44,456 bases of DNA from Flavobacteriales bacterium (GTDB lineage: Bacteria; Bacteroidota; Bacteroidia; Flavobacteriales_F; PHOS-HE28): the NCBI GenBank assembly GCA_019638075.1, contig JAHBUM010000002.1, positions 1 through 44,456 on the forward strand, written 5' to 3'. This document shows positions 2,459 through 41,656 of the stretch, piece by piece. Each line of letters opens with the position of its first letter. Within the stretch, counting starts at the first letter, position 1. The notes below the pieces were generated by a model. It did no database searches, was not told where the DNA came from, and worked only from the letters and a program-made list of their open reading frames with translations. The position numbers were made by a program, and so were the translations under genes.

Positions 2459-3547
2459 ATGAAACGCAACTGGATCCTGCCCATCGTACTGGTCGTACTG
2501 GCCCTCGGCATCGGCCTGCGGCTGGCCGGCAACAAGAAGAAGCTCGATGCGGCGAAACAGCCCATCGACCGCAGCGGCTTCGCCATTCCCGTGAACGTGA
2601 TCGTCGCGGCCATCGCGCCGGTGGAAGGCGGCTTCTCCGTGCCCGGCACACTGGAGCCGTACGACCACGCCAAGGTGATGGTGCAATCGCAGGGCAAGCT
2701 CGCCAGCCTGCACGTGGACCTCGGCTCGCGCGTGGCGAAGGGGCAGGTGCTGGGCAGCCTCGATGTGGCACAGAAGCAATTGGAACTACAGGCCGCCGAG
2801 CTTTCGTTGGAGAAGCTGCGCAAGGACGAGCAGCGCTACCGCGAGCTGGTGGCGGGCAAGGCCGCGCCCGAGGCCAACTACGATGATGTGCGCTTCAACT
2901 TCGAGACGCAGCAGGTGAAGGTGGACCAGATCCGCCAGCAGCTCCGCGATGCACAGGTGATCAGTCCGGTGGGCGGCACCGTGGTGGCGAAGAACGTGGA
3001 GGTGGGCGAATACGTGGGCGCCAACACCGCCGTGGTGGAAGTGGTGGACGTGAGCCGCCTGAAGGCGCGGGTGCAGGTGAGCGAGCATGATGCCTACCGC
3101 CTGAAGGAGGGCGATGCCGTGGCGATCACCAGCGCAGTGTTCCCCGGCGAGACCTTCGATGGCCGCGTGACCTTCGTGAGCCCGCGCGGCGATGCCAGCC
3201 ACAACTACCTCGTGGAAGTGGCGTTGCAGAACGATAGAACGCATCCGCTGAAGAGCGGCACCTTCATCAACGCGCGGTTCGACACGGGATCCGGCGTGCC
3301 CATGCTCACGATCCCCAAGAACGCGCTGGCCGAAGGCATGAAGGAACCCTACGTGTACGTGGTGCAGGGCGCCGGCGATGATGCGCGCGCGCAACGCCGC
3401 GAGCTGGTGCTGGGCCGCGAGGCCGGGGAGCGCGTGGAAGTGCTGAAAGGTCTGGCGCCGGATGAGACCGTGGTGGTGAGCGGTCAGTTGAATCTGGTGG
3501 AGGGAAGCAGGGTACGGGTGAATGCGGGCGATCAGACAATTAGATGA
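2459..3547 (+). CDS. Efflux RND transporter periplasmic adaptor (MFP/HlyD family)
   Basis: 362 aa. N-terminal TM anchor, then lipoyl / alpha-hairpin / beta-barrel pattern (GTLEPYDHAKVMVQSQGKLASLHVDLGSRVAKGQVLGSLD ... VISPVGGTVVAKNVEVGEYV). Confidence 0.9.
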   Translation: MKRNWILPIVLVVLALGIGLRLAGNKKKLDAAKQPIDRSGFAIPVNVIVAAIAPVEGGFSVPGTLEPYDHAKVMVQSQGKLASLHVDLGSRVAKGQVLGSLDVAQKQLELQAAELSLEKLRKDEQRYRELVAGKAAPEANYDDVRFNFETQQVKVDQIRQQLRDAQVISPVGGTVVAKNVEVGEYVGANTAVVEVVDVSRLKARVQVSEHDAYRLKEGDAVAITSAVFPGETFDGRVTFVSPRGDASHNYLVEVALQNDRTHPLKSGTFINARFDTGSGVPMLTIPKNALAEGMKEPYVYVVQGAGDDARAQRRELVLGREAGERVEVLKGLAPDETVVVSGQLNLVEGSRVRVNAGDQTIR

Positions 3548-3574
3548 TCAGAAGATCAGACGATCAGATGATCC
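3530..3574 (+). repeat. Tandem octamer repeat GATCAGAN (about 5 copies) spanning the MFP stop codon
   Basis: GATCAGAcaatta-GATGATCAGAA-GATCAGAC-GATCAGAT-GATCC. The same word GATCAGAAG recurs at 4628-4636 and, reverse-complemented, twice at 33812-33828. Confidence 0.8.
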
Positions 3575-3628
3575 CCGGAACGAACACCCGCATTCGATCC
3601 GCCGTGGTGCGCAAGGCCCGGCCGCACA

Positions 3629-3636
3629 TACATTTA
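3629..3636 (+). promoter_or_regulatory. Candidate -7 promoter box TACATTTA just upstream of the riboswitch
   Basis: 7/8 match to TAnnTTTG, ending 5 nt before the first aptamer nucleotide, so a transcript would start at the aptamer 5' end. Confidence 0.4.
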
Positions 3637-3640
3637 CCGC

Positions 3641-3697
3641 ACAGGAAATGGGGTCTTCCTGAACCAACCGCCGCAGTGGCTGATGACTCCTGTTCAC
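3641..3697 (+). promoter_or_regulatory. Fluoride riboswitch (crcB motif RNA)
   Basis: ACAGGAAAUGGGGUCUUCCUGAACCAACCGCCGCAGUGGCUGAUGACUCCUGUUC. Local stem AGGAA/UUCCU (3643-3647 / 3656-3660) with loop AUGGGGUC. Conserved AACCGCC, a short second stem GCC..GGC and conserved GCUGAUGA. The 3' GACUCC (3685-3690) complements loop GGGGUC (3650-3655) to form the pseudoknot. By eye it aligns to the published Pseudomonas syringae and Bacillus cereus fluoride aptamers. It lies 17 nt upstream of crcB. Confidence 0.85.
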
Positions 3698-3713
3698 TTA
3701 AGGTCTATCGGCC

Positions 3714-4097
3714 ATGAACAGGATGTGGATCATAGTCGGCTTGGGCGGTTTCATCGGCGGCGCTGCGCGTCACTTCTGGATGACTTGGGGCACGCGCCTT
3801 TCCATCGGTGCGTTCCCGTGGGCGCTGATGGGCCTGAACGTGCTGGGCAGCCTCGCGATCGGCGCGGTGTTCGGCCTGTCGCAGCGGTACCAATGGTTCA
3901 CGCCCGAATGGAGGCTCTTACTCGGCGCGGGCGTGTGCGGCGGCTTCACCACGTTCTCCGCCTTCAGCCTTGAAACGGTGCAGTTGCTGCAACGCGGCGA
4001 GACCATGCAGGCCGCGCTCTTCGCGCTGGGCAGCGTGGCGCTGTGCGTCATCGGCACGGGCATCGGGCTTTACCTCACTTCAACACATCCGGCATGA
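3714..4097 (+). CDS. crcB: Fluoride ion channel CrcB/FluC
   Basis: 127 aa, 4 TM. Family signatures GGFIGGAARH, LGLNVLGSLAIG, CGGFTTFSAFSLE. Confidence 0.95.
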   Translation: MNRMWIIVGLGGFIGGAARHFWMTWGTRLSIGAFPWALMGLNVLGSLAIGAVFGLSQRYQWFTPEWRLLLGAGVCGGFTTFSAFSLETVQLLQRGETMQAALFALGSVALCVIGTGIGLYLTSTHPA

Positions 4098-4651
4098 AAC
4101 ATCCATGGCACCACGTGGCGACGGGCGAACGAGCGCCGGAGCGCGTACACGCGATCATCGAGATCCCCAAGGGGAGCCAAGGCAAGTACGAACTGCACAA
4201 GGAAAGCGGCCTGCTGATGCTGGACCGCGTGCTCTTCAGCGCGGTGCATTACCCGGCCAATTACGGCTTCATCCCGCGCACCTATTGCGACGACAACGAC
4301 CCGTTGGACATCATGGTGCTCACGAGCCTTACGCTGCCGCATCTCTGTCTGGTGGAGGCCACGGTGATCGGCGTGATGCGCATGGTGGACCAAGGCGAGG
4401 CCGACGACAAGATCATCGCCGTGGCGACGCATGATGAGAGCGTGAACCACATCACGGACATCGCCCAGCTGCCCGCCCACACCACGTTGCAGATGCGCCG
4501 CTTCTTCGAGGATTACAAGAAGCTGGAGCACAAGGAGGTGGTGGTGGAGCATTTCCTCGGCCGTGAAGAGGCACTGCAGATCGTGAAGGAGAGCATGGAG
4601 TTGTACGAGACGGTGTTCGGAGGGGAGGATCAGAAGGACAGAAGTGAATAG
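4094..4651 (+). CDS. ppa: Inorganic pyrophosphatase, family I
   Basis: Tracked ORF 4043..4651 trimmed to MKHPWHHV at 4094, whose ATG overlaps the crcB TGA (ATGA). Family I PPase pattern: VHAIIEIPKGSQGKYELHKESGLLMLDRVLFSAVHYPANYGFIPRTYCDDNDPLDIMVL...DDKIIAV. The last ~10 codons (GGEDQKDRSE) are encoded by a GATCAGA-type repeat. Confidence 0.92.
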   Translation: MKHPWHHVATGERAPERVHAIIEIPKGSQGKYELHKESGLLMLDRVLFSAVHYPANYGFIPRTYCDDNDPLDIMVLTSLTLPHLCLVEATVIGVMRMVDQGEADDKIIAVATHDESVNHITDIAQLPAHTTLQMRRFFEDYKKLEHKEVVVEHFLGREEALQIVKESMELYETVFGGEDQKDRSE

Positions 4652-4716
4652 CGAATGGTCATTGGCGAATGGGCGGCTCCGCATTCCCATTCACCACCTC
4701 CCATTCACCATTCACC
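4628..4716. repeat. Word-periodic hairpin element (GATCAGAAG words, then GAATG / CATTC heptamers)
   Basis: GATCAGAAG-GACAGAAG, then heptamers GTGAATA-GCGAATG-GTCATTG-GCGAATG (4644-4671). After a spacer come the complementary heptamers GCATTCC-CATTCAC-CACCTCC-CATTCAC-CATTCAC (4681-4715). GAATGGG 4667-4673 pairs with CCCATTC 4686-4692. Confidence 0.75.
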
Positions 4717-7870: not shown

Positions 7871-7925
7871 AAAGCAGCGTATGCGAACTGGTATGCCAAC
7901 TGAAGGGTGATGTGCGTGAGCCCAC

Positions 7926-8225
7926 CTACTCCTCAACGAACCGCGCCACACGCCGCACCTCGTCTCCCTGCTGCACGAGCAGATAGGCGCCGGGTATGAG
8001 GGCATCGGTATCCACCACGTGGCTGCCCACGGCGGTGAAGCGGCCTTCGATCATCGTGCGGCCCTGCATGTCCACGATGCGCCATGGGGCGGCACCAGCA
8101 GGCAGCGGCACTTCGGGGCTGCCTGCTTGGATCTCCCTCTTGCCCCCTCGCATAGACCGCTTCCTCATCCCCCTCACCAAGCCCGCTCTCCGGCATCGTG
8201 GCAGAACCGTAGCTTTGGCTTCCAC
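7926..8225 (-). pseudogene. Possible remnant of a T9SS C-terminal sorting domain (Por_Secre_tail-like) with no protein body
   Basis: The C-terminal ~50 aa (WRIVDMQGRTMIEGRFTAVGSHVVDTDALIPGAYLLVQQGDEVRRVARFVEE) follow the T9SS CTD pattern (i.D..GR.v.......idts.L.pG.Yll.......r..k.v). There is no room for an upstream cargo domain before the divergent ALDH-like gene. Confidence 0.3.
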
Positions 8226-8260
8226 CGGTCCGGGTCCACGAGGCCCGGGTGGGAAGCACG

Positions 8261-9229
8261 ATGAGCAAGACCATAAGCAAGCCCTCCACGAAGATCGCCC
8301 TCAACGGCAACGGGCATGCCGCCCCGAACGCAGCGAAGGAGCGCCTGCCCGTGATGAAGACCTACAAGATCTTCATCGGCGGCAAGTTCCCGCGCACCGA
8401 GAGCGGCCGCTACTACCAGCCGGAGCTGCATGCCGTCGCTTCGGCGCAGGCCGGGGTGGCCAATGTGTGCCGCAGCAGCCGCAAGGATGTGCGCGATGCC
8501 GTGGTGGCCGCGCGTGGCGCCTTCGGTGGATGGGCCGGTCGCAGCGCCTTCAATCGCGGGCAGATCCTCTACCGCATCGGCGAGATGCTCGAAGGGCGCC
8601 GCGCACAGTTCGTGCATGAGATCATGCTGCATGGCGGCACGCGCGAACATGCCGAAGCCCGCGTATCACAGGCCATCGACCGCTGGCTGCACTACGCCGG
8701 TTGGTGCGACAAGTATCAGGCGCTCTTCAGCAGCGTGAACCCCACGAACAGCTCGCACTTCAACTTCAGCGTTTACGAGCCCACGGGTGTGGTGGGCGTG
8801 ATGGCACCGACAGGCAGTGCCCTGCTCGGCCTCGTGAGCGTGATCGCCCCGGTGATCGCGGGTGGCAACACCTGTGTGGTGGTGGCGAGCGAAAGCATGC
8901 CGCTGCCCGCCGTCACCTTCACCGAAGTGCTCGCCACCAGCGACCTGCCCGGCGGCGTGGTGAATCTGCTCACCGGCTTCCGCAAGGAGCTGCTGAAGCC
9001 CCTCGTGGCGCACATGGACATCAATGCCGTGGTGGTGGCCGATGCCACGCACGACGAACGCGTGATGCTCGATACCGAGGCCACATGCAACCTGAAGCGT
9101 GTGGTGTATCCTAAGGCCGACTGGACAAAGGAGGAGGGGCAGTCGCCTTATTTCATCCTCGATACGCAGGAGGTGAAGACCACTTGGCATCCCATTGAGC
9201 GCGGGCAGGGTGGGGGCGGGGGGTATTGA
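8261..9229 (+). CDS. Aldehyde dehydrogenase-like protein lacking the catalytic domain
   Basis: The tracked ORF starts at GTG 8249; the first ATG is 8261. ALDH N-terminal/cofactor-domain motifs are present (KIFIGGKFPRTESGRYY, YEPTGVVGVMAP, IAGGNTCVVVASE, LPGGVVNLLTG, NLKRVV). The protein ends about 50 aa later with no ELGG Glu or catalytic Cys region. Confidence 0.7.
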   Translation: MSKTISKPSTKIALNGNGHAAPNAAKERLPVMKTYKIFIGGKFPRTESGRYYQPELHAVASAQAGVANVCRSSRKDVRDAVVAARGAFGGWAGRSAFNRGQILYRIGEMLEGRRAQFVHEIMLHGGTREHAEARVSQAIDRWLHYAGWCDKYQALFSSVNPTNSSHFNFSVYEPTGVVGVMAPTGSALLGLVSVIAPVIAGGNTCVVVASESMPLPAVTFTEVLATSDLPGGVVNLLTGFRKELLKPLVAHMDINAVVVADATHDERVMLDTEATCNLKRVVYPKADWTKEEGQSPYFILDTQEVKTTWHPIERGQGGGGGY

Positions 9230-9235
9230 ACGGCC

Positions 9236-9769
9236 ATGCGCCTCCTTGCACGTTCCCTCCTTTTTCTGATCGGAACGCTGGTATTGATATGGCTGCTTCG
9301 TGGGCCGTTGTTCCGTGCTGTGGTACACTACCGCGTTGTGGGCACACGCGCTCCGGCGGTCGTGCCGAAGTCCGCAGGAGGCACGGTCGAGGATCTCGAA
9401 GCAGCTATCGGTGCCGCACTGGACACCACCGCTGCGCGCCTGCACTTCTCCACCGGAAGCGTGTCGAACGATCCCGCCCGGCTCGGTCCCGGAAGTCCCG
9501 CCAATTGCATTGGCTATGCGGCGTTGTTCGCTTCGCTACTCAAAGGGTATCTCGCTGCGATGGATAGTGAGGGTCGCTATGCAGTGGAGCCGATCGTGGG
9601 CCAGTTGCATATCGGTGGATGGAACTTGCACGATGTGTTCAGCGGTCCGTTCTGGAAGGATCATGACATCGTGCGCATCACCGACAGGGTGAGCGGTGCG
9701 CACACATACATCGACCCCACGCTGTATGATGCAGTGGGGATCGGCTGCGTGCGCGGACAGGGGCAATAA
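9236..9769 (+). CDS. Membrane-anchored transglutaminase-like (Cys-His-Asp core) protein
   Basis: 177 aa. N-terminal TM. ANCIGYAALFASLL (Cys motif), then WKDHDIV and YIDPT resemble the transglutaminase-like cysteine peptidase core. Confidence 0.5.
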   Translation: MRLLARSLLFLIGTLVLIWLLRGPLFRAVVHYRVVGTRAPAVVPKSAGGTVEDLEAAIGAALDTTAARLHFSTGSVSNDPARLGPGSPANCIGYAALFASLLKGYLAAMDSEGRYAVEPIVGQLHIGGWNLHDVFSGPFWKDHDIVRITDRVSGAHTYIDPTLYDAVGIGCVRGQGQ

Positions 9770-9834
9770 GGGCGTACACTCATCGGAGTTCTCGTAGGAT
9801 CACAATGTTCTGCACTGCGTGCGATCTTTACCCC

Positions 9835-10326: not shown

Positions 10327-10434
10327 GCACCATCACTTTCCCATCGGTGCAGGACTTCATGCAATGACATCAAGCAGGGTGGGGGCATTTGCGCGATTCC
10401 GGCTCGTGGCCGGAATGACAATTCATGGCACGGT

Positions 10435-10470
10435 CGAATTGGGTGGCTTGCCGCCCAATTCGGCTTTTGT
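10435..10470 (+). terminator. Rho-independent terminator-like hairpin with U tract
   Basis: 12-bp stem CGAATTGGGTGG / CCGCCCAATTCG (10435-10446 / 10451-10462) with CTTG loop, followed by GCTTTTGT. It is flanked by two 8-bp hairpins: ATTCCGGC..GCCGGAAT (10396-10416) and ACTCCGGC..GCCGGAGT (10472-10492). Confidence 0.55.
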
Positions 10471-10557
10471 CACTCCGGCCATGAGCCGGAGTCGCGTGAT
10501 CTTCCGGTGCGAAGCTCCATCCATTCTGTTCACCTTCCTCCCATACACACCCTGAGC

Positions 10558-10959: not shown

Positions 10960-11059
10960 GGCAGTTGCCAGGAATGCCTCCGTCCGTGGCTGCGATGGAA
11001 CGGAAGCCTACACAGCAGCTCTCACCAAGGAGCCTGACAACTGGCAACTGACAACTGCC
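10960..11059. repeat. MITE-like element, copy A (GGCAGTTGCCAGG ... CCTGACAACTGGCAACTGACAACTGCC)
   Basis: About 70-95% identical by eye to 28244-28343. The right end CACCAAGGAGCCTGACAACTGGCAAC[T/C]GACAACTGCC is identical apart from one mismatch. The interior shares AATGCCT..TCCG..CGATGGAAC..GAAGC. It lies between convergent genes. Confidence 0.75.
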
Positions 11060-11069
11060 AGCCCCCCCC

Positions 11070-11570
11070 TCACCACGTCCCCAGTATCGCCAGCAGCGCT
11101 ATCATCGGGATGTCGCCTTGCACGTGCAGGATCGCGTCGGCCTTGTTGCAGAAGGGGCCTTCGCCGAGGTACACCGTGTTGCCATCGAGCACGAAGCCGC
11201 CATCGCCCTTGTTGCAGAACGCGCCATCGCCCCGGAAGATCTTCTGCTTCTCCACCAGCAGCACGCAGCTGCTCTTGGTGCAGAAGGCACCCGAGCAGCG
11301 GAACAGCTTGTCGCCCTCGGCGCGGAACATGCCGGTGCCGCGCTGGCCGAAGGCATCGGCGCTGCGGTACACGGCCTCATCATCGTACACGAACACGCAC
11401 GGGCCTTTGCTGCCGAACGGGCCGCAGGCTTGGTAGATGCGCCCTTTCTCCACCACGTAGGCCGCATCGCCGATGTTGCCGAACGGACCGTAGGCGAACC
11501 GCACCACGGCCTGTTGCGCGTTCAGTGCGAACGACAGCATCATCGACAGAAGGGGAAGCAGCTTCCTCAT
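11070..11570 (-). CDS. Secreted protein made of six tandem 22-residue repeats (G-[PA]-F-[GC] repeat), unknown function
   Basis: Signal peptide [20 protein letters not shown]. Then VRFAYGPFGNIGDAAYVVEKGR / IYQACGPFGSKGPCVFVYDDEA / VYRSADAFGQRGTGMFRAEGDK / LFRCSGAFCTKSSCVLLVEKQK / IFRGDGAFCNKGDGGFVLDGNT / VYLGEGPFCNKADAILHVQGDI, then a hydrophobic tail. The start overlaps the upstream stop (ATGA). Confidence 0.7.
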   Translation of the reverse strand: MRKLLPLLSMMLSFALNAQQAVVRFAYGPFGNIGDAAYVVEKGRIYQACGPFGSKGPCVFVYDDEAVYRSADAFGQRGTGMFRAEGDKLFRCSGAFCTKSSCVLLVEKQKIFRGDGAFCNKGDGGFVLDGNTVYLGEGPFCNKADAILHVQGDIPMIALLAILGTW

Positions 11571-19955: not shown

Positions 19956-20017
19956 ATCGGATCAAGCGGGCCGGTGAAGAAGCGGCGTCGGGGTGGTCGT
20001 TGTTTGGAAGAGTAGAG

Positions 20018-20142
20018 CTCCGTCCTAATTCGATCCAACCACGGATGAACTCTGATCGACACGGATCGATGGCTGCGGCATCTGTGTCCATCTGTGGTTC
20101 AAAAACCGTTGCTCCGCCACAGGCGGAGCAATTAGGACGGAG
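20018..20142. repeat. Structured ~125-nt element bounded by a 13-bp perfect inverted repeat (CTCCGTCCTAATT / AATTAGGACGGAG)
   Basis: The interior has CCACGGATGAAC...GACACGGAT on the left and ATCTGTGTC-CATCTGTGG on the right (nested imperfect hairpin), plus GCTCCGCC-aca-GGCGGAGC (20111-20129). The core 20056-20100 is about 80% identical by eye to 31993-32037. Confidence 0.7.
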
Positions 20143-20220
20143 GTCTAGTGCGAAAGTGAAGGGGAGCGAGGGATGCGGCTTTCACTCTCGCACTCCTGAC
20201 CGACCGTTTCTTTGTAGCGG

Positions 20221-22707: not shown

Positions 22708-22715
22708 CAAATTTA
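22708..22715 (-). promoter_or_regulatory. -7 promoter box TAAATTTG for the histidine kinase-gpmI unit
   Basis: Perfect TAnnTTTG on the minus strand, 10 nt upstream of the ATG at 22697. Confidence 0.5.
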
Positions 22716-22753: not shown

Positions 22754-22826
22754 GCAGCAGGCAAGTAGGCGGTCGGCAGCAAATACACTGGTCGGGTCCG
22801 CTGCCTGCTGCCGACTCGCCGACTGC
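22754..22826. repeat. Word-periodic hairpin element (GCAGCAG/GGTCGGCAGC ... GCTGCC..GCCGACTGC)
   Basis: Left GCAGCAGGCAAGTAGGCGGTCGGCAGC, spacer, right GCTGCCTGCTGCCGACTCGCCGACTGC. GGCGGTCGGCAGC pairs with GCTGCCGAC(T)CGCC. The right end GCCGACTGCATT matches 35897-35908. Confidence 0.65.
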
Positions 22827-22912
22827 ATTTTGCTTTCGCACTCTGCGCCCCTATGCCTCCACCTCCGTAGCGTGCCTTTCAACGCGGTCCGTATCTTGCC
22901 CGCTCTCCGCCC

Positions 22913-23500: not shown

Positions 23501-23507
23501 GAGGGGA

Positions 23508-23572
23508 GCGGGCAGTAGGCTCATCAGGGCATTGCTGCCTACTGCCTGCTGCGGACCGTCTGCTGTCTGCCC
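23508..23572. repeat. Word-periodic hairpin element (GGCAGTAGGC / GCCTACTGCC), related to 27902-27974
   Basis: 10-bp perfect stem 23511-23520 / 23537-23546. The loop TCATCAGGGCATTGCT matches the loop GGTCAGGGCATTTGCT of the 27.9-kb copy. Trailing CTGCTGC/CTGCTGTCTGCC words follow. It starts 8 nt after the HD gene stop. Confidence 0.7.
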
Positions 23573-23604
23573 TTCCCCTGCCTTGAGTACATTCACCGCT
23601 TCGG

Positions 23605-25008
23605 ATGCCACTGAACGTATCGGACATGAACAAACCGTGGGACCATTGGTCATTGCGGTATCTGCCACTGGCACTTTTGCTTATCCATATGTGCATGGCA
23701 TGGGTGTTCGCGCAGGAGCGCATCATGAACACGGATTGTTCGTTGCAGTTCTTCTCCTCGGTGAACGACGGCGCCTTCTTCTTCCAGGAATCCCGCTACG
23801 GTGTGTTCCCCACACAGGTGCCGCTCGTCCTCGGCATCCACCTGCAACTGCCCATGAAGTGGCTGGTGGCGATCTACTCGCTGAGCTTCCCCTTGGTCTA
23901 CGGCATCATCCTTTGGGTGGTGCAGTACCGGCTGCGCTCCATGGCGGCCGCATTGGCGCTTACCGCCACCTTGCTCATCGGCTGGGCGTCCACCTTTTTC
24001 CATTGCACCACCGAGACCCATCTGCTCCTGGCGGCCTCGGCATTGCTGTACGCCACGTACGAGGCGTTCGGGCGCGACACCGGGCACCTTGTGCGCCGGG
24101 CCGTGCCCTTCGTGGTGGTGGTCTGGTGCCTGACCATCCATCCCAATGCGCTCTTCACCGTGGGCTTCGTCACCGGGCTGGCGTGGATCAACGGGTTGGT
24201 GACGCTCCGTTCGGGGCTGGTCTCCCTGGGCATCGCGGCGGCATACACCCTCGCGGCGATGGGGATGGCGGAGAAGGGTTCCTACGACGCGAACCAGTAC
24301 GACACCCTGCTGGGCGGGTTGGACCGCATCACGCACATCGGAGACCTGGCTGCCGTGTGGTTCCTCAAGGAATGGATCGGTGGGCAGTACCTGGCACCGG
24401 CCGCCATGGCGGTGGCGGTGATCCTATTCAGCCGGAACTGGCGGTCGGCGGGGTTCATGGTAGTCTGCGTAGCGGGCTTCGTGCTGATCACCATACTGAC
24501 CTTCCCCAACGGCGACAGCCTCGCGATGATGGAGAAGAGCTACATGCCGGCCCTGTTCATGATCGTACTGGCCTTCTGCACCATGCTGCCCAGGGTGCGC
24601 TTTCCGGGCCTTGCGGCCGCCTTGGTATGCGCAGGCGCCATCCATTCCGTGTACAACATCCGCGAGGCGGGCCTTCCTTACTCCCAACGGCTGGACATGA
24701 TGCGCGCACTGCTTGACGGCCCCGGCGCGGACACCCAGAAGATGGCCATGCGGAAAACCCCGTTCGAGGGGACCCGGCTGGTGGAGAGCAACTGGGCGTT
24801 GAGCATGGATGCATTGATCATGAGCCGTTGCATGGGTCCCGTCGCGAAGACGATCTTCATGGATGATCAGGCTGAACGCATGATGGCCGAAATGCCGCCG
24901 GGCACACAGTTCCTGTACACCTCATGGAACCCGTATGGCATGGTGCTGAAGGACCGGGTCTATTTCGATCTGCCAGAAGGTCCGTACAGGTTGATGCCGG
25001 ATCCGTGA
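23605..25008 (+). CDS. Polytopic integral membrane protein, unknown function
   Basis: 467 aa with about 10 hydrophobic segments in the N-terminal 330 aa and a soluble C-terminal ~130 aa. I recognise no motif. An alternative start is at 23626 (MNKPWDHW). Confidence 0.6.
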   Translation: MPLNVSDMNKPWDHWSLRYLPLALLLIHMCMAWVFAQERIMNTDCSLQFFSSVNDGAFFFQESRYGVFPTQVPLVLGIHLQLPMKWLVAIYSLSFPLVYGIILWVVQYRLRSMAAALALTATLLIGWASTFFHCTTETHLLLAASALLYATYEAFGRDTGHLVRRAVPFVVVVWCLTIHPNALFTVGFVTGLAWINGLVTLRSGLVSLGIAAAYTLAAMGMAEKGSYDANQYDTLLGGLDRITHIGDLAAVWFLKEWIGGQYLAPAAMAVAVILFSRNWRSAGFMVVCVAGFVLITILTFPNGDSLAMMEKSYMPALFMIVLAFCTMLPRVRFPGLAAALVCAGAIHSVYNIREAGLPYSQRLDMMRALLDGPGADTQKMAMRKTPFEGTRLVESNWALSMDALIMSRCMGPVAKTIFMDDQAERMMAEMPPGTQFLYTSWNPYGMVLKDRVYFDLPEGPYRLMPDP

Positions 25009-25090: not shown

Positions 25091-25119
25091 GAAGCCCCCG
25101 CCTCATCGGCAGGGGCTTC
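25091..25119. terminator. Terminator hairpin shared by the convergent membrane-protein gene and tRNA-Phe
   Basis: GAAGCCCC...GGGGCTTC 8-bp stem with inner GCC/GGC. On the minus strand it is followed by GCATTTCC, immediately 3' of the tRNA. Confidence 0.6.
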
Positions 25120-27348: not shown

Positions 27349-27930
27349 ATGGACAGGCCGCTCCGATCCATCCTCATCACGGTAAGCATCGCTTTTGCCG
27401 CCTGCCAGAACGATCTGGACAAGGTGGCCGCCGTTGAAGTGCAGCAGACCGCGCCGGACCGCATCACCACGCAGGCCGAATACCTGCAGAGCGACAGTGG
27501 CCGCGTGACGAACCGGCTGCGCGCGGGCCGCATCGCCCAATGGTCCACCGGCGACCGGGAGCGCACCGAGATGAGCGAGGGCGTGGAACTCGTCTTCTTC
27601 GATCGCGACGGCGAACAGCAGAGCCAGCTCACCGCGCGGCGCGGCCTCATCCTGCCGAAGGAGAAGCGCATGGAGGTGTACGAGCAGGTGGTGTTCGTGA
27701 ACCACAAGGGCGAGCGGCTGGAGACGGAACAGCTCACGTGGTACGAGGACAGCGCACGCGTGCGTACCGACAAGGCCGTGCGCGTGCAGCGCGGGCACGA
27801 CGTGATCCACGGCATGGGCCTCGATGCCGCCGAGGATTTCAGCAGCTATGTGATCCACAACATCACCGGGCAGTTGTATGTGCCGGATGAAGATACAAGT
27901 CGGCAGCAGGCAGTAGGCAGCGGGCAGTAG
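27349..27930 (+). CDS. lptC: LPS export ABC transporter periplasmic protein LptC
   Basis: 193 aa. Lipoprotein-like N-terminus (ITVSIAFAAC). The OstA/LptC beta-jellyroll pattern repeats (AEYLQSDSGRV...; MSEGVELVFFDRDGE...; VVFVNHKGERLETEQLTWYEDSARVRTDKAVRVQRG). The last 10 codons lie in a hairpin element. Confidence 0.8.
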   Translation: MDRPLRSILITVSIAFAACQNDLDKVAAVEVQQTAPDRITTQAEYLQSDSGRVTNRLRAGRIAQWSTGDRERTEMSEGVELVFFDRDGEQQSQLTARRGLILPKEKRMEVYEQVVFVNHKGERLETEQLTWYEDSARVRTDKAVRVQRGHDVIHGMGLDAAEDFSSYVIHNITGQLYVPDEDTSRQQAVGSGQ

Positions 27931-27974
27931 GCAGCAGGCCCGGTCAGGGCATTTGCTGCTGACTGCCTACTGCC
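27902..27974. repeat. Word-periodic hairpin element: five tandem heptamers GCAG[CT][AG]G, then GCTGCTGACTGCCTACTGCC
   Basis: Heptamers GCAGCAG-GCAGTAG-GCAGCGG-GCAGTAG-GCAGCAG at 27903-27937. A 15-bp stem (one bulge) pairs 27923-27937 with 27959-27974. It supplies the lptC stop codon. Confidence 0.8.
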
Positions 27975-28006
27975 AACTTGAGCTCCCCCCGCTACCTTCG
28001 TCGCCG

Positions 28007-28220: not shown

Positions 28221-28343
28221 GTTCGTTGTCGGTTGTCGGTTTTCAGTTGTCAGGGAATGCCTTCTTCCGCAGCTTCGATGGAACACAGAAGCTGCCCGGC
28301 AGTGTCCACCAAGGAGCCTGACAACTGGCAACCGACAACTGCC
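28221..28343. repeat. MITE-like element, copy B (heptamers GTTGTCG-GTTGTCG-GTTTTCA-GTTGTCA ... TGACAAC-TGGCAAC-CGACAAC)
   Basis: 11-bp perfect pairing of 28244-28254 with 28317-28327, plus 9 bp of 28233-28241 with 28330-28338. The ~62-nt interior has its own hairpin GCAGCTTC..GAAGCTGC. It is homologous to 10960-11059. Confidence 0.8.
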
Positions 28344-28378
28344 CCCTACCTTCGCCAACAGCCCTTCCGCCACCCGCC

Positions 28379-29659: not shown

Positions 29660-29777
29660 GACAGGAGCATTGCCCCTGCCAACTGCTCCTGCCCTTCTTC
29701 CCCTCGCCGAAAAGATCATCGTTACCGCCTGAACATGAGCCGGAAACGAAGGCTTATCCCCGTACGGGACAGCCGCC

Positions 29778-31916: not shown

Positions 31917-31950
31917 GAAGAACGCCGGGCAACAGCCCGGCGTTCTTGTT
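31917..31950 (+). terminator. Intrinsic terminator of the PpiD-like gene
   Basis: AAGAAACGCCGGGC-aaca-GCCCGGCGTTCTT (10 bp + bulge + 3 bp) followed by GTT. It begins 20 nt after the stop codon. Confidence 0.65.
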
Positions 31951-31991
31951 CGGACCTCTTTCGCATTCGATCCCAAACCGCCGATGGTCAT

Positions 31992-32075
31992 GGTCGACAC
32001 GGATCACTGCCGTGCCATCCGTATTCATCCGTGGTCCGATCCGGGAAGGGAGTCGTCACGATCCTCTCCCTTCCA
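31992..32075. repeat. Partial copy of the CACGGAT/ATCCGTG-word element, plus hairpin GGAAGGGAG..CTCCCTTCC
   Basis: TCGACACGGATCACTGCCGTGCCATCCGTATTCATCCGTGGTCC aligns with 20056-20100 (TCGACACGGATCGATGGCTGCGGCATCTGTGTCCATCTGTGGTTC). A 9-bp hairpin lies at 32044-32074. Confidence 0.6.
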
Positions 32076-32582: not shown

Positions 32583-33545
32583 TCAAGCCTTCATGGCCGC
32601 CTCCACCATGTTGCTGCTCCCGATGTACAGCGGTGTGCGTTGGTGCAGCTCGGTGGGCTTAAGGTCCAGGATGCGTGTGGTGCCGTCGGTGGCTTTCCCA
32701 CCGGCCTGTTCTGCAAGGAATGCGAGCGGGTTCGCCTCGTACAGCAGACGCAATTTGCCCTTGGGCGCTTTCTGTGTGCCGGGGTAGATGTAGATGCCGC
32801 CCTTGAGCAGGTTGCGGTGGAAGTCTGCCACGAGGCTGCCGATGTAGCGCGCGCTCATCTTCTTCTGCTTGCAGGCATCGATGTAGCTGCGCACGCCGTC
32901 GCTGAAGTCGAACCAGTTGCCCTCGTTGATCGAATAGATCTTGCCGTCGGCAGGCGTGGTCATGTTGGGGTGGCTCAGGCAGAAGGTGCCGATGCTGGGA
33001 TCCAGCGTGAAGCCGTTCACCCCGTGGCCTGTGCTGTACACCAGCATGGTGCTGCTGCCGTACACGATGTAGCCCGCCGCCACCTGCGCGCTGCCAGGCT
33101 GCAGGAAATCCTCCAACGTCGCCTTCGGCCCGGTGCTGATGCGCTTGTAGATGCTGAAGATGGTGCCGATGCTCACGTTCACATCGATGTTGCTGCTGCC
33201 ATCGAGCGGGTCCATCGCCACCACGTACTTGCCACCGTTGTCGAAGTGTACGATGTCGTCGTCCTCCTCGCTGGCCACGGCACATACGGCGCCCTGTGTC
33301 TTCATCATGCGGATGAAGAGGTCGTTGGCGTAGACATCGAGCTTCTGCTGTTGTTCGCCCTGCACGTTCTCGGTACCCTGTGCCCCGAGGATGTCGGCCA
33401 TCAGTCCGGCCTTGTTCACCTCGCGGTTCATGATCTTCCCGGCCAGCCGGAAGGCGGTGAGCAATGAGCTCAGGTCGCCGGACGCGCCGGTGAATTCGCT
33501 TTGGCGTTCAACGATGAATTCGGAAAGGGTCTTGATGTCGGCCAT
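32583..33545 (-). CDS. fbp: Class 1 fructose-1,6-bisphosphatase
   Basis: Trimmed to [18 protein letters not shown] (ATG 33545). FBPase signatures: [66 protein letters not shown]. Confidence 0.95.
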
Positions 33546-33579: not shown

Positions 33580-34143
33580 ATGAACATCGTCATCCGCCGC
33601 GCCGAGCCCCGTGATGTGCCGCGCATGCTGGAACTGGTGAGGGAACTGGCCCTGCTCGAGCGCGCACCGGAAGAAGTGACCGTGACACCGGAACACATGC
33701 TGGACGCAGGCTTCGGGCCGGATCCGGTGTGGGTGGGGTGGGTGGCGGAAATGCGACCAGAGGATCAGAAAATGAGAAGATCGGAAAATGACCTCGAACG
33801 CGAGGCGCGATCTTCTGATCTTCTGATCCGCTCATTTTCTGATCGCATCGCAGGCATCGCCGTCTGCTACGAACGCTATTCTACGTGGAAGGGCCGGCGC
33901 CTCTATCTGGAAGACATCATCGTGACGGAAGCCGCGCGCGGGCAGCGCATCGGTGAAAAGCTCTTCAGGGCGTGCGCGGCCTACGCGGTGGAGCATGGCT
34001 ACAGCGGTATGACGTGGCAGGTGCTGGATTGGAACACCGATGCCATCCGGTTCTATGAGCGGTTCGGCACGACGCTGGACCCCGAGTGGGTGAACGGGTC
34101 GCTGGACAGGGAGCAGTTGACGGCGGTGGTGGCTGGCCAATGA
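33580..34143 (+). CDS. GNAT family N-acetyltransferase carrying a 32-codon repeat-element insertion
   Basis: Trimmed to [24 protein letters not shown] (ATG 33580). GNAT core [64 protein letters not shown]. See the repeat at 33751-33846. Confidence 0.85.
33751..33846. repeat. GATCAGA-word hairpin element inserted in frame in the GNAT gene (96 nt)
   Basis: 14-bp perfect inverted repeat GATCAGAAAATGAG (33763-33776) / CTCATTTTCTGATC (33831-33844). Inner AAGATCG (33777-33783) / CGATCTT (33808-33814). Two reverse-complement copies of GATCAGAAG at 33812-33828. It encodes [32 protein letters not shown] between the conserved VAE and IAGIAV. Confidence 0.8.
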
Positions 34144-35816: not shown

Positions 35817-35857
35817 CAGCGAAGTGAAGATGTGAGAGGGTCCGAGAGTTCAAGGGT

Positions 35858-35903
35858 GGTCGGCAGCAGGCGGTCGGCCATGCCCGATATGCCACTGCCG
35901 ACT
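35858..35903. repeat. Word-periodic hairpin element (GGTCGGCAG...CTGCCGACT)
   Basis: GGTCGGCAGCAGGCGGTCGGCC on the left. GTCGGCAG (35859-35866) pairs with CTGCCGAC (35895-35902). The right end CTGCCGACTTGCATT resembles 22815-22829. Confidence 0.6.
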
Positions 35904-35982
35904 TGCATTCCTCTCTTCCTCTCCCCGCACCGTATTCCGCAAGTCTTCCGCATCTTCGCGCCGCGAAAGCAAACGGGGGGGA

Positions 35983-39201: not shown

Positions 39202-40135
39202 TCGGGAAATGATGGAGGATCTTGGAGGCCAGCACATCGGCCATCTTGAATTTGCCTTCGTGCGTGACACCGGCGATGTGCGGAGTGAGCAGCACGCGGT
39301 CGTGGCGCAGCAGGCGGGCGTAGGTGTGTTGGTCCATTGTGGGATCGAGGCCGTCCAGTTCGGGCCGCTCGAACTCCAGCACGTCCAGCCCGGCGGCGAG
39401 CACACGGCCATCGTCGATCGCATCGAGCAATGCCTTCGTGTGTACCACGCCGCCGCGCGAGGTGTTGAGGAACCACACGGGCTTCTTCAGCCGCGCGAAG
39501 AAGGCGGCATCCGCATAATGCTTCGTTCCGTTGTTCAGCGGAAGATGCAGGCTGATCGCGTCGCTCTCGTCCAACACTTGGTCGAGCGTGCGTTCTTCGA
39601 TCCCTTCCGCACCGAAACCGCTCCTGTACTTGTCGTGGCCGATGATGCGCACGCCGAAGCCGCGCAGCTTCTCCGCGAACGAACTGCCCATCTGCCCATA
39701 GCCGATGATGCCCACCGTCTTTCCACGCAGGTCCGTTCCGCGCAGGGCTTCACGCGGCCACAGTCCGTTGCGCACGGCCGTGTTCGCAGGCACCAGCTTC
39801 TTCAGCAGCGCGAGCAGCAGCATCACGCAGCTTTCGCCCACGCCATCGCGGTTGCCTTCCGGTGAGTTGAGTACGAGGATGCCCTTCTGCCCGCAATGTT
39901 CCACGTCGATGTTCTCCAATCCCGCGCCCACACGCGCGATGAAACGCAGCCCCGGTGAGCGGTCGATCGCGGCGGCATCGAAGCGGCTGCTGCGCACCAC
40001 GATGCCATCCATGGTGGCGAGGGCCGCTTGCCGATCGGCATCCGGCAGGGCATGCACGAGCGTGCAGGCATGACCGGCCGCCTCCACCCGCTGCGCGATG
40101 ACCGGATGCACGGGATCCAGAATGCCGATGCGCAT
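39188..40135 (-). CDS. D-isomer-specific 2-hydroxyacid dehydrogenase (phosphoglycerate dehydrogenase-like)
   Basis: Trimmed to MRIGILDPVHPV (ATG 40135). GKTVGIIGYGQMGSSFA Rossmann motif, NTSRGGVV, LDVLEFE, TPHIAG catalytic His region. It overlaps the GDPD start by 14 nt. Confidence 0.85.
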   Translation of the reverse strand: MRIGILDPVHPVIAQRVEAAGHACTLVHALPDADRQAALATMDGIVVRSSRFDAAAIDRSPGLRFIARVGAGLENIDVEHCGQKGILVLNSPEGNRDGVGESCVMLLLALLKKLVPANTAVRNGLWPREALRGTDLRGKTVGIIGYGQMGSSFAEKLRGFGVRIIGHDKYRSGFGAEGIEERTLDQVLDESDAISLHLPLNNGTKHYADAAFFARLKKPVWFLNTSRGGVVHTKALLDAIDDGRVLAAGLDVLEFERPELDGLDPTMDQHTYARLLRHDRVLLTPHIAGVTHEGKFKMADVLASKILHHFPNGTT

Positions 40136-40137
40136 GG

Positions 40138-41505
40138 TCAGGAGAGCATGCCATACATCAGGTGCCCTACGGTGAAGTAGGTGAGCAGCCCGAAGATGTC
40201 GTTCAACGTGGTGACGAACGGCCCGGTGGCGAGGGCCGGATCCACCTTCAGGCGGTCCATCAACAGCGGTATCACCGTACCGAACATGGCGGCGGTGACG
40301 ATCACGGTGAAGAGCGCGATGCTGACGGTGTAGGTGAGCGCCTGCGATTGTTCCAGCGCGAAATTGATGGCGAAGATGACGGCGCCGCAGACCAGCGCGG
40401 TCAGCAGGGCCACGCGCAGTTCCTTCCACATCCGCGTGAACAGGTTCACGTTCGCCATGCTGCCGGAGGCGAGGCCCTGCACCACGATGGCCGAGGACTG
40501 CACCCCCACGTTCCCCGCCGTGGCCGCGATCAGTGGCATGAAGAACGCCATGGTGGGGTCGATGCGCAGCTGCCCTTCGTACTGCGCGATGATGCGTGAG
40601 GAGATGATGCCACCCGCAAGGCCGATCAGCAGCCACGGCAGCCGGGCGCGTACCTGCACGATGGGGCTGTCCGTGGCGTCCACGTCCTCGCTGATACCGC
40701 TGGCGAGCTGGTAGTCCTCGGTGGCCTCCTCGGTCATCACGTCCATCACGTCATCGAAGGTGATGCGGCCGATCAGGTGGTCATGGTCGTCCACCACGGG
40801 CAGTGCGGCCACGTCGTACTTCTTCATCAGCTTCACCACCTCCTCCACGTCGTCATCGGCCTTCACGCTCACGATGTCGGTGTCGCAGATGTGCTTGATC
40901 AGGGTGCGCGTGCTCTCGGCGGAGAAGAGCAGGTCCTTCAGCGGCAATATGCCCAGCAGGCAGCCGTCCTTGTCCACCACGTAGATGGTGGAGGCGTGTT
41001 CCACTTCCTGCGCCTGCCGCCGCATCTCCACGATGGCGCGCGCCACGGTCCAGTCGGAGCGCACTTGGATCAGCTCCTTCGCCATCAGCGCGCCCGCCGT
41101 GCCTTCGGGGTGTGCCAGCAGCTCTTGGATGTCCTCGCGATGCTCGTGGTCGTCGAGCAGGGCGATCACCTCGCGCTGCTTGTCCTCGGGCAGCTCGGCC
41201 ATCACGTCGGCCGCGTCGTCCGTGTCGATGTGCTCCAGCACGTCCTCGGCGATCTCGCGGCTGGTGAGCGAGTTCAGCAGGTCTTCGCGCAGGCCCTCGC
41301 GCAGTTCGAGCAGCACCTCGGCAGCCACCTCGCTTTCGAGCAGGCGGTACACGTACACGGCCTCGTCCAGCCCCAGCTGATCGAGGATGGCCCCGATGTC
41401 CGCCGGGTGCAGGTCCGCCAGCAGTGCTTGGATCACCGAATCGCGCCCCTGCGCCACATCGGTGCGGAGGGCATCCAGCTGGGGCCGGGTGAGTTCGAAG
41501 GACAT
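40138..41505 (-). CDS. mgtE: Magnesium transporter MgtE
   Basis: 455 aa. N-domain (DLHPADIGAILDQL), CBS pair, and C-terminal 5-TM domain with ...PLIAATAGNVGVQSS... and GPFVTTLNDIFGLL. Confidence 0.93.
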   Translation of the reverse strand: MSFELTRPQLDALRTDVAQGRDSVIQALLADLHPADIGAILDQLGLDEAVYVYRLLESEVAAEVLLELREGLREDLLNSLTSREIAEDVLEHIDTDDAADVMAELPEDKQREVIALLDDHEHREDIQELLAHPEGTAGALMAKELIQVRSDWTVARAIVEMRRQAQEVEHASTIYVVDKDGCLLGILPLKDLLFSAESTRTLIKHICDTDIVSVKADDDVEEVVKLMKKYDVAALPVVDDHDHLIGRITFDDVMDVMTEEATEDYQLASGISEDVDATDSPIVQVRARLPWLLIGLAGGIISSRIIAQYEGQLRIDPTMAFFMPLIAATAGNVGVQSSAIVVQGLASGSMANVNLFTRMWKELRVALLTALVCGAVIFAINFALEQSQALTYTVSIALFTVIVTAAMFGTVIPLLMDRLKVDPALATGPFVTTLNDIFGLLTYFTVGHLMYGMLS

Positions 41506-41557
41506 GGCGCGGAGCCCTTTGTTCAGGGCGGCGCGAAGCTACGAAGGGGGGGAGGTA

Positions 41558-41656
41558 GGTTACGTGTTGGCGTGTTGCGTGTTACGGGTTGGCTACCCGA
41601 ACCCGCAACACGTCAACACGTAACCCGCAAACACGCAACCCGTCAACCCGCAACGC
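41558..41656. repeat. Word-periodic hairpin element (GTTNCGK 7/8-mers vs CAACACG/CCGCAAC words) between rsmA and mgtE
   Basis: GGTTACGTGTTG (41558-41569) pairs perfectly with CAACACGTAACC (41614-41625). A G.U pair follows, then CGTGTTGCG (41571-41579) pairs with CGCAACACG (41604-41612). That gives a 22-bp near-continuous stem plus about 4 inner bp. Roughly four extra unpaired C-rich words extend to 41656. Confidence 0.8.

Follow-up and report, generated by a model that had tools for sequence, protein, structure and literature searches.

What are the hairpins with arms of tandem 7-8 nt words that recur, mostly at gene ends, in the genome of a Flavobacteriales bacterium (assembly GCA_019638075.1)? 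The stretch analysed here, which we call the window, comprises positions 1 to 44,456 of contig JAHBUM010000002.1 (44,456 nt), and a sequence-only reading of it had put forward at least 11 loci of one design, in which the architecture is kept and the word drifts. Our follow-up indicates that these loci are probably copies of several small, non-autonomous palindromic insertion families (A/B, C, D, E, F and G; Table 1), about 50-135 nt in length, which have recently spread in one species of an uncultured, GC-rich lineage of Flavobacteriales. A shared architecture with differing words was indeed found, but the loci fall into ordinary sequence families, and they differ in word mainly because several such families coexist, not because one element drifts. 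A collapse of all loci into a single consensus of the repetitive extragenic palindrome (REP) or MITE (miniature inverted-repeat transposable element) kind, also considered in that reading, did not occur: several families were found, not one.

The window has 63% G+C and encodes proteins typical for Bacteroidota, such as a CHU_C/type IX secretion-signal (T9SS) protein, a GldE-like CNNM/CBS/CorC protein, LptC and a PpiD-like protein, together with iPGM, FBPase, MgtE, KsgA, the AcrB/HlyD/OEP proteins of an efflux set and CrcB, which a fluoride riboswitch precedes. A xanthomonad with the GGGAATC family, as the G+C content and the heptamers might suggest, was rejected as the source, since Pfam and the nearest genomes point to Bacteroidota. 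For this genome, the data consist of the 44-kb window and a contig of about 7 kb from a second strain of the same species (L081), 99.6% identical across 7.2 kb. The comparison also drew on L001-L007, metagenome-assembled genomes of uncultured 'Flavobacteriales bacterium' that were the nearest in a one-genome-per-species collection (GldE identity 61-77%), and on the closer relatives L093-L098, which came from a protein search (GldE identity 84-91%, with L093 at 91%). The relatives keep the gene order CHU_C - iPGM - histidine kinase (HK) - HD - tRNA - pantothenate kinase - LptC - 70-aa open reading frame (ORF) - GldE - PpiD, and a second set of loci keeps FBPase, GNAT, aspartokinase, GDPD, 2-hydroxyacid dehydrogenase, MgtE and KsgA.

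Tandem-word hairpins and their empty sites

Arrays were searched with Tandem Repeats Finder (TRF) and with our own ungapped lag detector, using dinucleotide shuffles as background; hairpin strength is expressed as the z-score of the RNA fold against shuffles, and family relationships come from nhmmer and pairwise alignments. TRF located period-7/8 arrays at 3529-3573, 4626-4644, 4682-4716, 11034-11057, 27902-27939, 28225-28251, 33759-33844, 41559-41591 and 41595-41654. The lag detector reported three arrays of period 7 and three of period 8, against about 0.03 per period in the shuffles (a stricter first version gave two arrays only), and the enrichment over shuffled sequence that had been proposed as a check on the loci was thus observed in the window. 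With the exception of F2, which lies in frame within a gene (3 x 8 = 24 nt), the detected period-7/8 arrays are found at gene ends or between genes, and those of period 6, 9 or 12 are all within coding DNA. Tandem units of 7 or 8 nt, in at least three copies and with a bias to non-coding DNA, are therefore seen both by TRF and by the detector against its shuffles. No lag-7 autocorrelation was detected across the intergenic DNA of the window overall, which indicates that the periodicity is local to discrete elements. In terms of density, the 44-kb window holds seven period-7/8 arrays, five of them with an inverted partner; the close relatives (68 kb) hold two, both with a partner, and other Bacteroidota (1348 kb) hold 85, with a partner in 13%.

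Inverted arms pair 41558 with 41600 (26 nt, 92%), 28232 with 28317 (23 nt, 91%), 33763 with 33818 (27 nt, 85%) and 27909 with 27956 (19 nt, 84%), and the terminal inverted repeats present have arms of 13-39 nt that are 74-94% complementary. The fold z-scores were -4.5 for A1, -4.4 for A2, -4.8 for C1, -5.2 for E, -4.7 for D and -6.6 for F2, with weaker values for B1 (-2.8), F1 (-2.7), B2 (-2.2), C2 (-1.8) and G2 (-0.14 for 31985-32045). Both arms are tandem-word arrays in five loci (A1, C1, D, E and F2), to which the design proposed for at least 11 has to be restricted; the others have at most two words, lack a partner or are not tandem. In this regard, the word hairpins read at 27903-27974 (A1), 4644-4715 (E) and 41558-41656 (D) stand. 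The segment at 23511-23546 (A2), taken for a relative of A1, does share its loop and the sequence on either side of it but has no more than two words per arm, and those at 22754-22826 (B1) and 35858-35903 (B2) are hairpins, but with an irregular periodicity of about 14 nt. The hairpin at 28225-28343 (C1) holds and its copy at 10960-11059 (C2) is homologous, but the left arm of the latter is truncated. Among the octamer loci, 33763-33844 (F2) is a hairpin, whereas 3530-3574 and 4628-4644 are direct arrays without a complementary partner. Finally, the two CACGGAT loci (20038-20100 and 31992-32037) share homology with each other. Their repeats, however, have a spacing of 11 (in G2) or 21 nt instead of forming tandem heptamers, and the hairpin read in the second locus folds no better than shuffles. 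Rfam scans, by gathering threshold and by E-value, returned no family for any element; the sole match, to mir-449 at A1, was a chance one.

It could be argued that these loci are by-products of composition or of ordinary simple-sequence repeats (SSRs), without any identity as elements. The weakest of them (G2, C2 and B2) are individually non-significant, other Bacteroidota (1.35 Mb) likewise have 7 as their most frequent period, and heptamers are the commonest class of long SSR in prokaryotes according to the survey of Mrazek (2007), as it is cited in PMC4679880 and PMC4692102. We nevertheless regard such an origin as scarcely credible, given the excess of arrays over the shuffles, the z-scores of -4.4 to -6.6 at six loci, the high share of arrays with an inverted partner compared with other Bacteroidota and the clear insertion boundaries that relatives reveal; for the core loci, the shuffles and the empty-site alignments refute it.

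Seven sites are comparable with their orthologues in relatives (CHU|iPGM, HK|HD, LptC|small ORF, small ORF|GldE, downstream of HD, MgtE|KsgA and the GNAT loop) and all seven are empty there, the five anchored by GldE even in relatives with 84-91% GldE identity. The comparison of orthologous sites called for by the earlier reading thus found absence of the element from relatives as well as a word number that differs between species. At the LptC stop, L093, L094, L096 and L097 read GGATGA|TACCTTAG, and A1 is inserted in the window exactly at that point; LptC overlaps the small ORF in these four relatives, and terminates inside the A1 hairpin in the window. C1 separates the stop of the conserved 70-aa ORF from a likewise conserved -7 box, that of the GldE-like gene (28347-28354), a site that is empty in L093, L096 and L097 and where relatives have 10-40 nt between the GGGGTAG| stop and the TAyCTTCG box. 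We also considered whether the inverted -7 box found upstream of C1 forms part of the element, and rejected this, as GCGAAGGGGTAG is native in L093. The spacer between MgtE and KsgA measures 154 nt in the window and 39-49 nt in L101/L103; on its sense (minus) strand, D follows the KsgA stop and ends in CCTACCTCCCCCCC, ahead of the MgtE promoter region, and the native CTTCGTAGCTTCGCGC is kept downstream of it, so that the C-run of D belongs to the insert.

Spacers differ in length at two sites more. The HK|HD spacer has 215 nt in the window versus 57-100 nt in relatives, and B1 is the centre of an insertion of about 150 nt located between two divergent -7 boxes, one for the histidine kinase gene (22708-22715, minus strand) and one for the HD gene (22892-22899). 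Between the convergent CHU_C-domain and iPGM genes the spacer has 265 nt versus about 1-40 nt in relatives, and holds the composite element TIR20013, within which a family G copy (G1, 20054-20100) is nested. On the minus strand of TIR20013 (20131-20109), the terminator scan located a canonical hairpin with a T-run, the only one downstream of iPGM, and this insertion may have brought a terminator along. At the A2 site, relatives carry an ordinary terminator and a tRNA. A 467-aa ORF without Pfam match (23605-25008) lies in the window between the HD gene and the conserved terminator and tRNA, and, because HD is directly followed by the terminator and tRNA in all relatives, this ORF and A2 are read as lineage-specific inserted DNA. 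In the region of B2, the aspartokinase gene of L102/L103 directly adjoins the GNAT gene.

On these alignments, the elements are recent insertions of about 85-150 nt. In L081, A1, C1 and G2 are identical to those of the window except for a 1-nt change in the C-run of A1, which is the sole indel in 7.2 kb (this poly-C tract may be prone to slippage), and no variation of word copy number between the two strains was found for these three loci. The comparison of strains and relatives shows that the elements postdate the divergence from relatives at 91% GldE identity and are not hypervariable. No target-site duplication was visible at the four junctions that alignments of filled and empty sites resolve (A1, C1, D and the GNAT loop), the HK|HD and CHU|iPGM junctions being too diverged for such a reading.

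Since no target duplication was seen and the elements have a hairpin form, we prefer a mechanism of the HUH/Y1 type, in which an enzyme that recognises single-stranded hairpins, either a REP-associated tyrosine transposase (RAYT) or an IS200/IS605-like protein, would move the elements in trans. Replication slippage would then build and remodel the arms in these hairpin-prone sequences, by units of 7 or 8 nt or by their multiples (14, 16 or 21 nt), and the opposite arm would be inherited from the parent copy or partly re-matched. Slippage is supported by differences in whole words between arms and between orthologues, such as the 14-nt unit repeated three times in the left arm of A1, the 15- and 21-nt units that TRF reports in D and E, and one extra word in the right arm of the L085 copy. 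As for their placement, it would reflect purifying selection, in that a compact genome would tolerate some 100 extra nt after stops or in a permissive protein loop, with possible side effects on transcript processing or stability. The tetranucleotide GTAG occurs in the arms of A1, A2 and B1 and beside C1, D and TIR20013, when about 8 occurrences would be expected by chance in some 1.2 kb on both strands (an estimate); C, E and F proper lack it, and the one at C1 is native sequence.

Table 1. Coordinates of the elements and associated features; positions refer to the window unless a contig is named.
Feature	Position	Strand	Description
A1	27891-27992	+	Insertion of ~102 nt at the LptC stop codon
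A1 parts			5' arm (GGCAGNN) x5.4, 27902-27939; loop TCAGGGCATTTGC; 3' arm of ~3 words, 27953-27979; C-run, 27984-27989
A2	23506-23582	+	A1 family; few nt past the HD-domain gene stop; ~1.5-2 words per arm; order GCGGGCAGTAGGC, loop TCAGGGCATTGC, GCCTACTGCC, C-rich tail
B1	22754-22833	+	GCAGCAG / GCAAGTAG / GCGGTCG / GCAGCA words vs CTGCC / GCCGACT words
B2	35855-35911	+	Hairpin GGTCGGCAGCAGGCGGTCGG / CACTGCCGAC, pyrimidine-rich tail; between metallophosphoesterase and aspartokinase genes
C1	28220-28346	+	5' arm GTTGTCG GTTGTCG GTTTTCA GTTGTCA; 3' arm TGACAAC TGGCAAC CGACAAC; then C-run
C2	10960-11069	+	Truncated 5' arm GGCAGTTGCCAGG; conserved core; intact 3' arm CCTGACAACTGGCAACTGACAAC; C8 run
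D	41546-41659	-	Plus-strand (GTTNNNN) x4.6 vs (NNNNAAC) x8.3; 24-bp stem
E	4644-4716	+	GTGAATA GCGAATG GTCATTG GCGAATG vs CATTCC CATTCAC CACCTCC CATTCAC CATTCAC
F1 array	3530-3573	+	(GATCAGAN) x5.6, direct only, without complementary partner or real hairpin; detector score 21
Short F-like array	4627-4644	+	GGATCAGAAGGACAGAAG, TRF 2.2 copies; encodes the last pyrophosphatase residues; directly 5' of E
F2	33750-33849	+	Octamer hairpin (GATCAGAN)n vs (NTCTGATC)n; in frame inside the GNAT gene
GNAT acetyltransferase gene	33580-34143	+	From Pfam, PDB homologues, translations and alignment
TIR20013 (composite)	20013-20147	+	135 nt; 18-nt terminal inverted repeats TAGAGCTCCGTCCTAATT / AATTAGGACGGAGGTCTA (94%); fold z -7.4
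G2	31992-32037	+	GGTCGACACGGATC-N10-GCCATCCGTATTCATCCGTGGTCC; lies past the normal terminator of PpiD (31920-31945); matches G1 by regular expression
mreB-mreC hairpin, L002	18180-18272		Example in a relative
mreB-mreC hairpin, L007	16773-16856		Example in a relative
mreB-mreC hairpin, L094	19073-19156		Example in a relative

Shared cores and the GNAT loop

Family relationships among the loci extend beyond the words. A1 and A2 have in common GCGGGCAGTAGGC, the loop TCAGGGCATT(T)GC and CTGCCTACTGCC in their alignment, and A1 matches B1 in nhmmer (E = 6e-6). In the same way, TIR20013 with its G1 matches 31960-32039 with its G2 (E = 4e-3). The clearest case is family C, where C1 and C2 (E = 1e-12) share an identical 3' arm and about 80% of the columns of a non-repetitive core, which in C1 has 62 nt (GGGAATGCC...CACCAAGGAGCC); the C8 run of C2 abuts the stop of a convergent gene at 11070. 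A metagenome scan with 19 nt of this core recovered copies of the family from contigs of other Bacteroidota (L085/L088, L092 and L091, the latter encoding GldB/GldC), with arms of the form (GTTNNNN)3-4 ... (NNNNAAC)3-4, a scheme that D follows too. No match to the family C pattern was found in viral contigs. A second hairpin of L091, (NNGGGTA)x5 / (TACCCNN)x5 at 1219-1304, has a stem of about 34 bp and lies between a hydrolase gene and engB; located 1.1 kb from the family C copy, it offers the same design with another word in a second organism.

In the window, the octamer word GATCAGAN of family F is found at 3530, 4627 and 33750, and the same word occurs in L099, L100 and L101. F1 overlaps the stop of the HlyD-type gene (3545-3547), about 60 nt upstream of the fluoride riboswitch aptamer, and similar arrays occur in L100 (2696-2733) and L101 (1031-1066). 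The riboswitch itself (Rfam RF01734, 51 bits; 3635-4097) is immediately upstream of crcB. In viral contigs, the family F pattern matched nothing but unrelated arrays of octamer repeats that vary in copy number, and these matches were discarded. Among the viral sequences of IMG/VR, L110, L111, L114 and L115 (67-69% GC) carry 4-5 or 8-9 tandem GATCAGAG at the same locus; these contigs are unrelated, and the array has the word of family F, presumably by convergence.

F2 has the most unexpected location. F2 is not intergenic: FBPase starts at 33545 on the minus strand, and GNAT homology flanks F2 on both sides. The loop that F2 encodes follows the conserved GWVAE motif and is enlarged, with (GATCAGAN)3, that is 24 nt, read as DQKIRRS; F2 is thus a palindromic repeat in frame with the ORF preserved. 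GNAT orthologues have mostly 156-159 aa and a loop of 7 residues, and an enlarged loop (9-40 residues) occurs in 38 of 113 of them (34%; set P0121-P0240), with at least six types of peptide. Hairpins of family F occupy the loop in the window and in L099 (102 nt each) and in L100 (117 nt), where the left arm has three words more than in F2; nhmmer relates F2 to the L099 copy with E = 9e-15 and to that of L100 with E = 1e-11. At the same codon position, L101 carries a family C hairpin of 93 nt whose 3' arm is identical to that of C1 at 21 of 23 positions. The loop of L102 contains GGAGTCN direct repeats (75 nt), and that of L103 is empty. The inserts of the five species (102, 102, 117, 93 and 75 nt) are all divisible by 3. 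In the tree of this short protein, which is poorly resolved, F-type inserts are scattered among insert-free orthologues and adjoin C-type ones, a distribution of sequences that suggests repeated insertion at one GNAT site. Several short inserts of the loop (e.g., EDRSGDPIDRSSGRIV) resemble decayed F-type inserts. In L100, ParE/ParD and PemK modules adjoin the FBPase-GNAT locus.

These comparisons bear on local generation, one of the explanations first advanced for the loci. In such a scenario, slippage would expand a word and template switching, by quasipalindrome correction or fold-back synthesis, would copy its inverted partner de novo. Slippage does change the word number of the arms, with whole-word indels restricted to one arm; different words sit at one orthologous site in different species (the mreB-mreC spacer and the GNAT loop), and partnerless arrays such as F1, those of L100 (2696-2733) and L101 (1031-1066) and the GNAT loop of L102 might be intermediates. 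Moreover, downstream of C1 the native GCGCCTATCTTCG reads GCCCCCTACCTTCG, a better complement to the native upstream CGAAGGGGTAGGG. An origin of whole elements de novo is contradicted, however, by cores and arm word order that are common to distant loci and species (C1/C2/L092/L101, the A1/A2 loop and F2/L099/L100). Inserted DNA unlike the native flanks of the empty sites also speaks against it, and for the rise of A1 and C1, 230 nt apart, in the same recent interval a burst of transposition is a better fit. We hold this scenario to be quite improbable as a general explanation and, for single-copy words, a minority possibility.

Polarity, gene ends and the question of terminators

G-first polarity is common to all the word-type hairpins (16 of 16; the window has nine and related contigs seven). 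Their 5' arms are G/T-rich (GC skew +0.2 to +0.67) and their 3' arms C/A-rich, with C:G counts of 18:1 in E, 28:8 in D and 18:2 in a hairpin of L091 (L091-1). No such bias is seen in the non-word hairpins (TIR20013, the palindrome at 10391-10496 and the canonical terminators). G-first polarity was considered as a signal of the direction of transcription and rejected, as a palindrome keeps it on both strands; orientation is given instead by a C5-8 run or C-rich tail past the 3' arm and by the unequal word numbers of the arms. On the sense strand of the flanking genes, the C-run is found in A1, C1, C2 and D, and a C-rich or pyrimidine-rich tail takes the same place in A2 and B2. Seven elements (A1, C1, A2, D, E, F1 and C2) start or end 0-10 nt from a stop codon; E spans that of the pyrophosphatase gene (4649-4651) and ends just upstream of the AcrB-type gene. 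Conserved TAnnTTnG boxes begin shortly after the ends of A1, C1 and B1, and we take them to be the -7 element of Bacteroidetes promoters; a sigma-70 promoter scan of the window was uninformative for Bacteroidota.

Such an anatomy would be expected if the loci were RNA elements selected for their structure, whose sequence turns over: terminators independent of a U-tract or assisting Rho, operon attenuators or stabilisers of 3' ends, with the C-rich, G-poor 3' arm and the C-run acting as a Rho-loading-like tract. The proximity of seven elements to stop codons, the C-runs and tails on the sense strand, the composition of the 3' arms and a hairpin conserved at the mreB-mreC junction (see below) are all in line with this proposal. 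The terminator scan, however, found no T-run after any word-type hairpin of the window, where tails are C-rich and only the inner hairpin of TIR20013 qualifies. Canonical hairpins with a T-run are in use elsewhere in the window, after PpiD (31920-31945) and before the tRNA (25091-25119), and in relatives, where an ordinary terminator follows the HD gene. The sense position downstream of a gene holds for A1, A2, C1, C2, D and E and is violated by B1, between divergent promoters, and by F2, within an ORF; the placement first described is therefore partly wrong, B1 not lying after a gene and F2 (33751-33848) not being intergenic. A strong terminator inside the GNAT ORF, where F2 and the family C copy of L101 lie and whose frame is maintained in several species, would abolish the gene. 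Moreover, in relatives with 84-91% identity the operons do without a hairpin at the same junctions, where genes often overlap or are 18-48 nt apart, and convergent selection for structure does not predict family-level homology across unrelated loci. The absence of T-runs, the positions of B1 and F2 and the use of ordinary terminators make a dedicated terminator role, as had been suggested, unlikely, and we see a low probability for RNA elements of this kind in general.

The mreB-mreC junction deserves separate attention. In nine of nine relatives examined, a strong hairpin without T-run directly follows the mreB stop and precedes mreC, as a plain GC palindrome (up to 23 bp) in L001, L003, L004 and L094, and as a word-type hairpin in L002, L007, L005 and L096/L097. 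The latter comprise four word sets, with words such as GAGTGGN, GCGGCAA and GCCNNCC and a 3' arm often one or two words longer. Either a structure is selected here at a fixed site, or the junction could be a safe place to land that is repeatedly occupied. A broader proposal is that G-first tandem-word hairpins are built or installed at certain favoured sites (stops, the mreB-mreC junction and the GNAT loop) by a process that recognises structure or period and not sequence, through a hairpin-recognising HUH-type enzyme that would tolerate any word or through slippage and fold-back synthesis. If so, a single mechanism would have produced the different words at one orthologous site independently, and would have left the prokaryotic excess of heptamer repeats as its footprint. 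We think that such a process is improbable.

Recent spread of insertion families, which we favour, has itself several observations against it. The conserved mreB-mreC hairpin is one of them, and the uniform G-first polarity together with the orientation of the C-runs is not explained by selfish spread alone. No insertion polymorphism between the window and the L081 strain was caught. Each family has one to three copies within the 44 kb, and D and E are single-copy in the data, where to speak of a dispersed family is an extrapolation. A Pfam search of the about 40 ORFs of the window revealed neither a transposase nor a RAYT, and a mobilising enzyme was thus not identified in these 44 kb, a result that fits mobilisation in trans. 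Finally, the 3' arm of F2 is 79-83% identical among three species, versus 69-74% for the flanking codons and 48-55% for their third positions, and this better conservation hints at a constraint on the element itself.

Other palindromes and genes of the window can be listed here. A near-perfect nested palindrome of 106 nt (10391-10496), which was absent from the earlier list, has arms of 30 nt that are 90% complementary (RNA fold z = -11), each with its own TTCCGGC...GCCGGAA palindrome, and an inner hairpin GGTCGAATTGGGTGGC/GCCGCCCAATTCGGC; it lies between co-directional genes, has no tandem words and is single-copy in the data. Directly past the GldE stop (29660-29709), a 9-bp hairpin CAGGAGCA...TGCTCCTG with the C-rich tail CCCTTCTTCCCCTCGCC repeats the layout of the word elements without tandem words, and is not conserved in relatives. 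In 7871-8248 and 8249-9804, stretches without a convincing gene (378 and 575 nt) flank an ORF that matches no more than the first half of an aldehyde dehydrogenase profile (positions 17-232 of 461), and these may be pseudogene remnants. A gene for a ParE-family toxin is found at 42475-43130 with a small upstream ORF, likely its antitoxin.

Known repeats and the heptamer puzzle

Three groups of bacterial elements come closest in their way of working. REPs and their mosaics (bacterial interspersed mosaic elements, BIMEs) are reportedly moved by RAYT transposases of the Y1 HUH class, and GTAG-tagged palindromes such as the SMAG of Stenotrophomonas are said to belong to them. Like REP/BIMEs, the elements described here are short imperfect palindromes, mostly extragenic and near gene 3' ends, with several families per genome, lineage-specific bursts and no target-site duplication, and GTAG is found in the A/B arms and near D and TIR20013. 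They differ in their length (50-135 nt versus about 35 nt), in arms of degenerate 7/8-nt words with variable copy number, in the lack of a consistent GTAG head and of a RAYT within 44 kb, and in having one copy in frame in a gene. The latter feature recalls the Rickettsia palindromic elements (RPEs), which reportedly occur both in and outside genes. The likeness is in the mode of working: palindromic repeats of about 100 nt, several families, intergenic or in frame in genes, which contribute a surface peptide and leave the ORF intact, like F2 and the family C copy of L101 in the GNAT loop. RPEs, however, come from an unrelated phylum and their arms are not tandem heptamers, while here one loop is hit by different families. 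With MITEs, the elements share a small size, no coding capacity, terminal inverted repeats, multiple copies, absence from the sites of relatives and nested copies (G1 in TIR20013); they depart from them by the lack of target-site duplication at the four resolved junctions and by arms that vary in word number and sequence, which a DDE transposase binding terminal inverted repeats would tolerate poorly. Although they work most like REP/BIMEs, MITEs and RPEs, we could assign them to none of the three.

The arms, for their part, are long SSRs of the heptamer class. Heptamers are said to make up the short tandemly repeated repetitive (STRR) sequences of cyanobacteria. In Xanthomonas, GGGAATC heptamers are intergenic, in about four units and on average 28 nt past the upstream ORF (Rehm et al. 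2015, PMC4692102), and form 70-75 convergent plus/minus pairs per genome, capable of stem-loops, whose length and sequence vary among related species (PMC4692102). That is a single word family (GGGNATC), read as G-quadruplex-forming (PMC4692102), whereas the Bacteroidota elements comprise at least six unrelated words, most of them incapable of forming a G-quadruplex, and show evidence of insertion, conserved non-repeat cores and a copy in a coding region. In Beggiatoaceae, cyanobacteria and some Flavobacteriia, direct repeats of the TAACTGA type are intergenic and patchily distributed (MacGregor 2015, PMC4679880), and certain spacers of Gramella, Aequorivita and Elizabethkingia hold 'larger assemblages of heptamer repeats' where close relatives have short spacers free of repeats, with indels in steps of 7 nt (PMC4679880). 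Words of the family C/D 3' arm (CAACTGG, GAACTGA) match TAACTGA at 5-6 of 7 positions. The TAACTGA-type repeats are, however, direct, with only one indirect case in BOGUAY, and often upstream of starts, where a translational role was proposed (PMC4679880); a complementary second arm and a placement at stop codons define the elements of the window.

What is new in them is that several unrelated word families share a G-first architecture in one genome, that insertion is directly demonstrated, with conserved cores, and that copies of the same families occur in other species, with an in-frame hot spot. The origin and function of heptamer repeats, ranked by the 2007 survey as the commonest long SSR of prokaryotes, are unsettled as far as PMC4679880 and PMC4692102 describe them, and neither the Xanthomonas GGGAATC study nor the Beggiatoa/Flavobacteriia TAACTGA study ended with a settled answer to either question (PMC4692102, PMC4679880). 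For annotation, the elements call for caution, as they rewrite the C-termini of LptC, the pyrophosphatase and the HlyD-type protein and displace the sequence upstream of -7 boxes. The burst being recent, the empty sites clean and a small GNAT gene a recurrent hot spot, they offer a tractable case for finding the mobiliser and for measuring remodelling by slippage. Seen as the arms of discrete, recent palindromic insertions, heptamer and octamer arrays link the heptamer puzzle to the biology of mobile elements.

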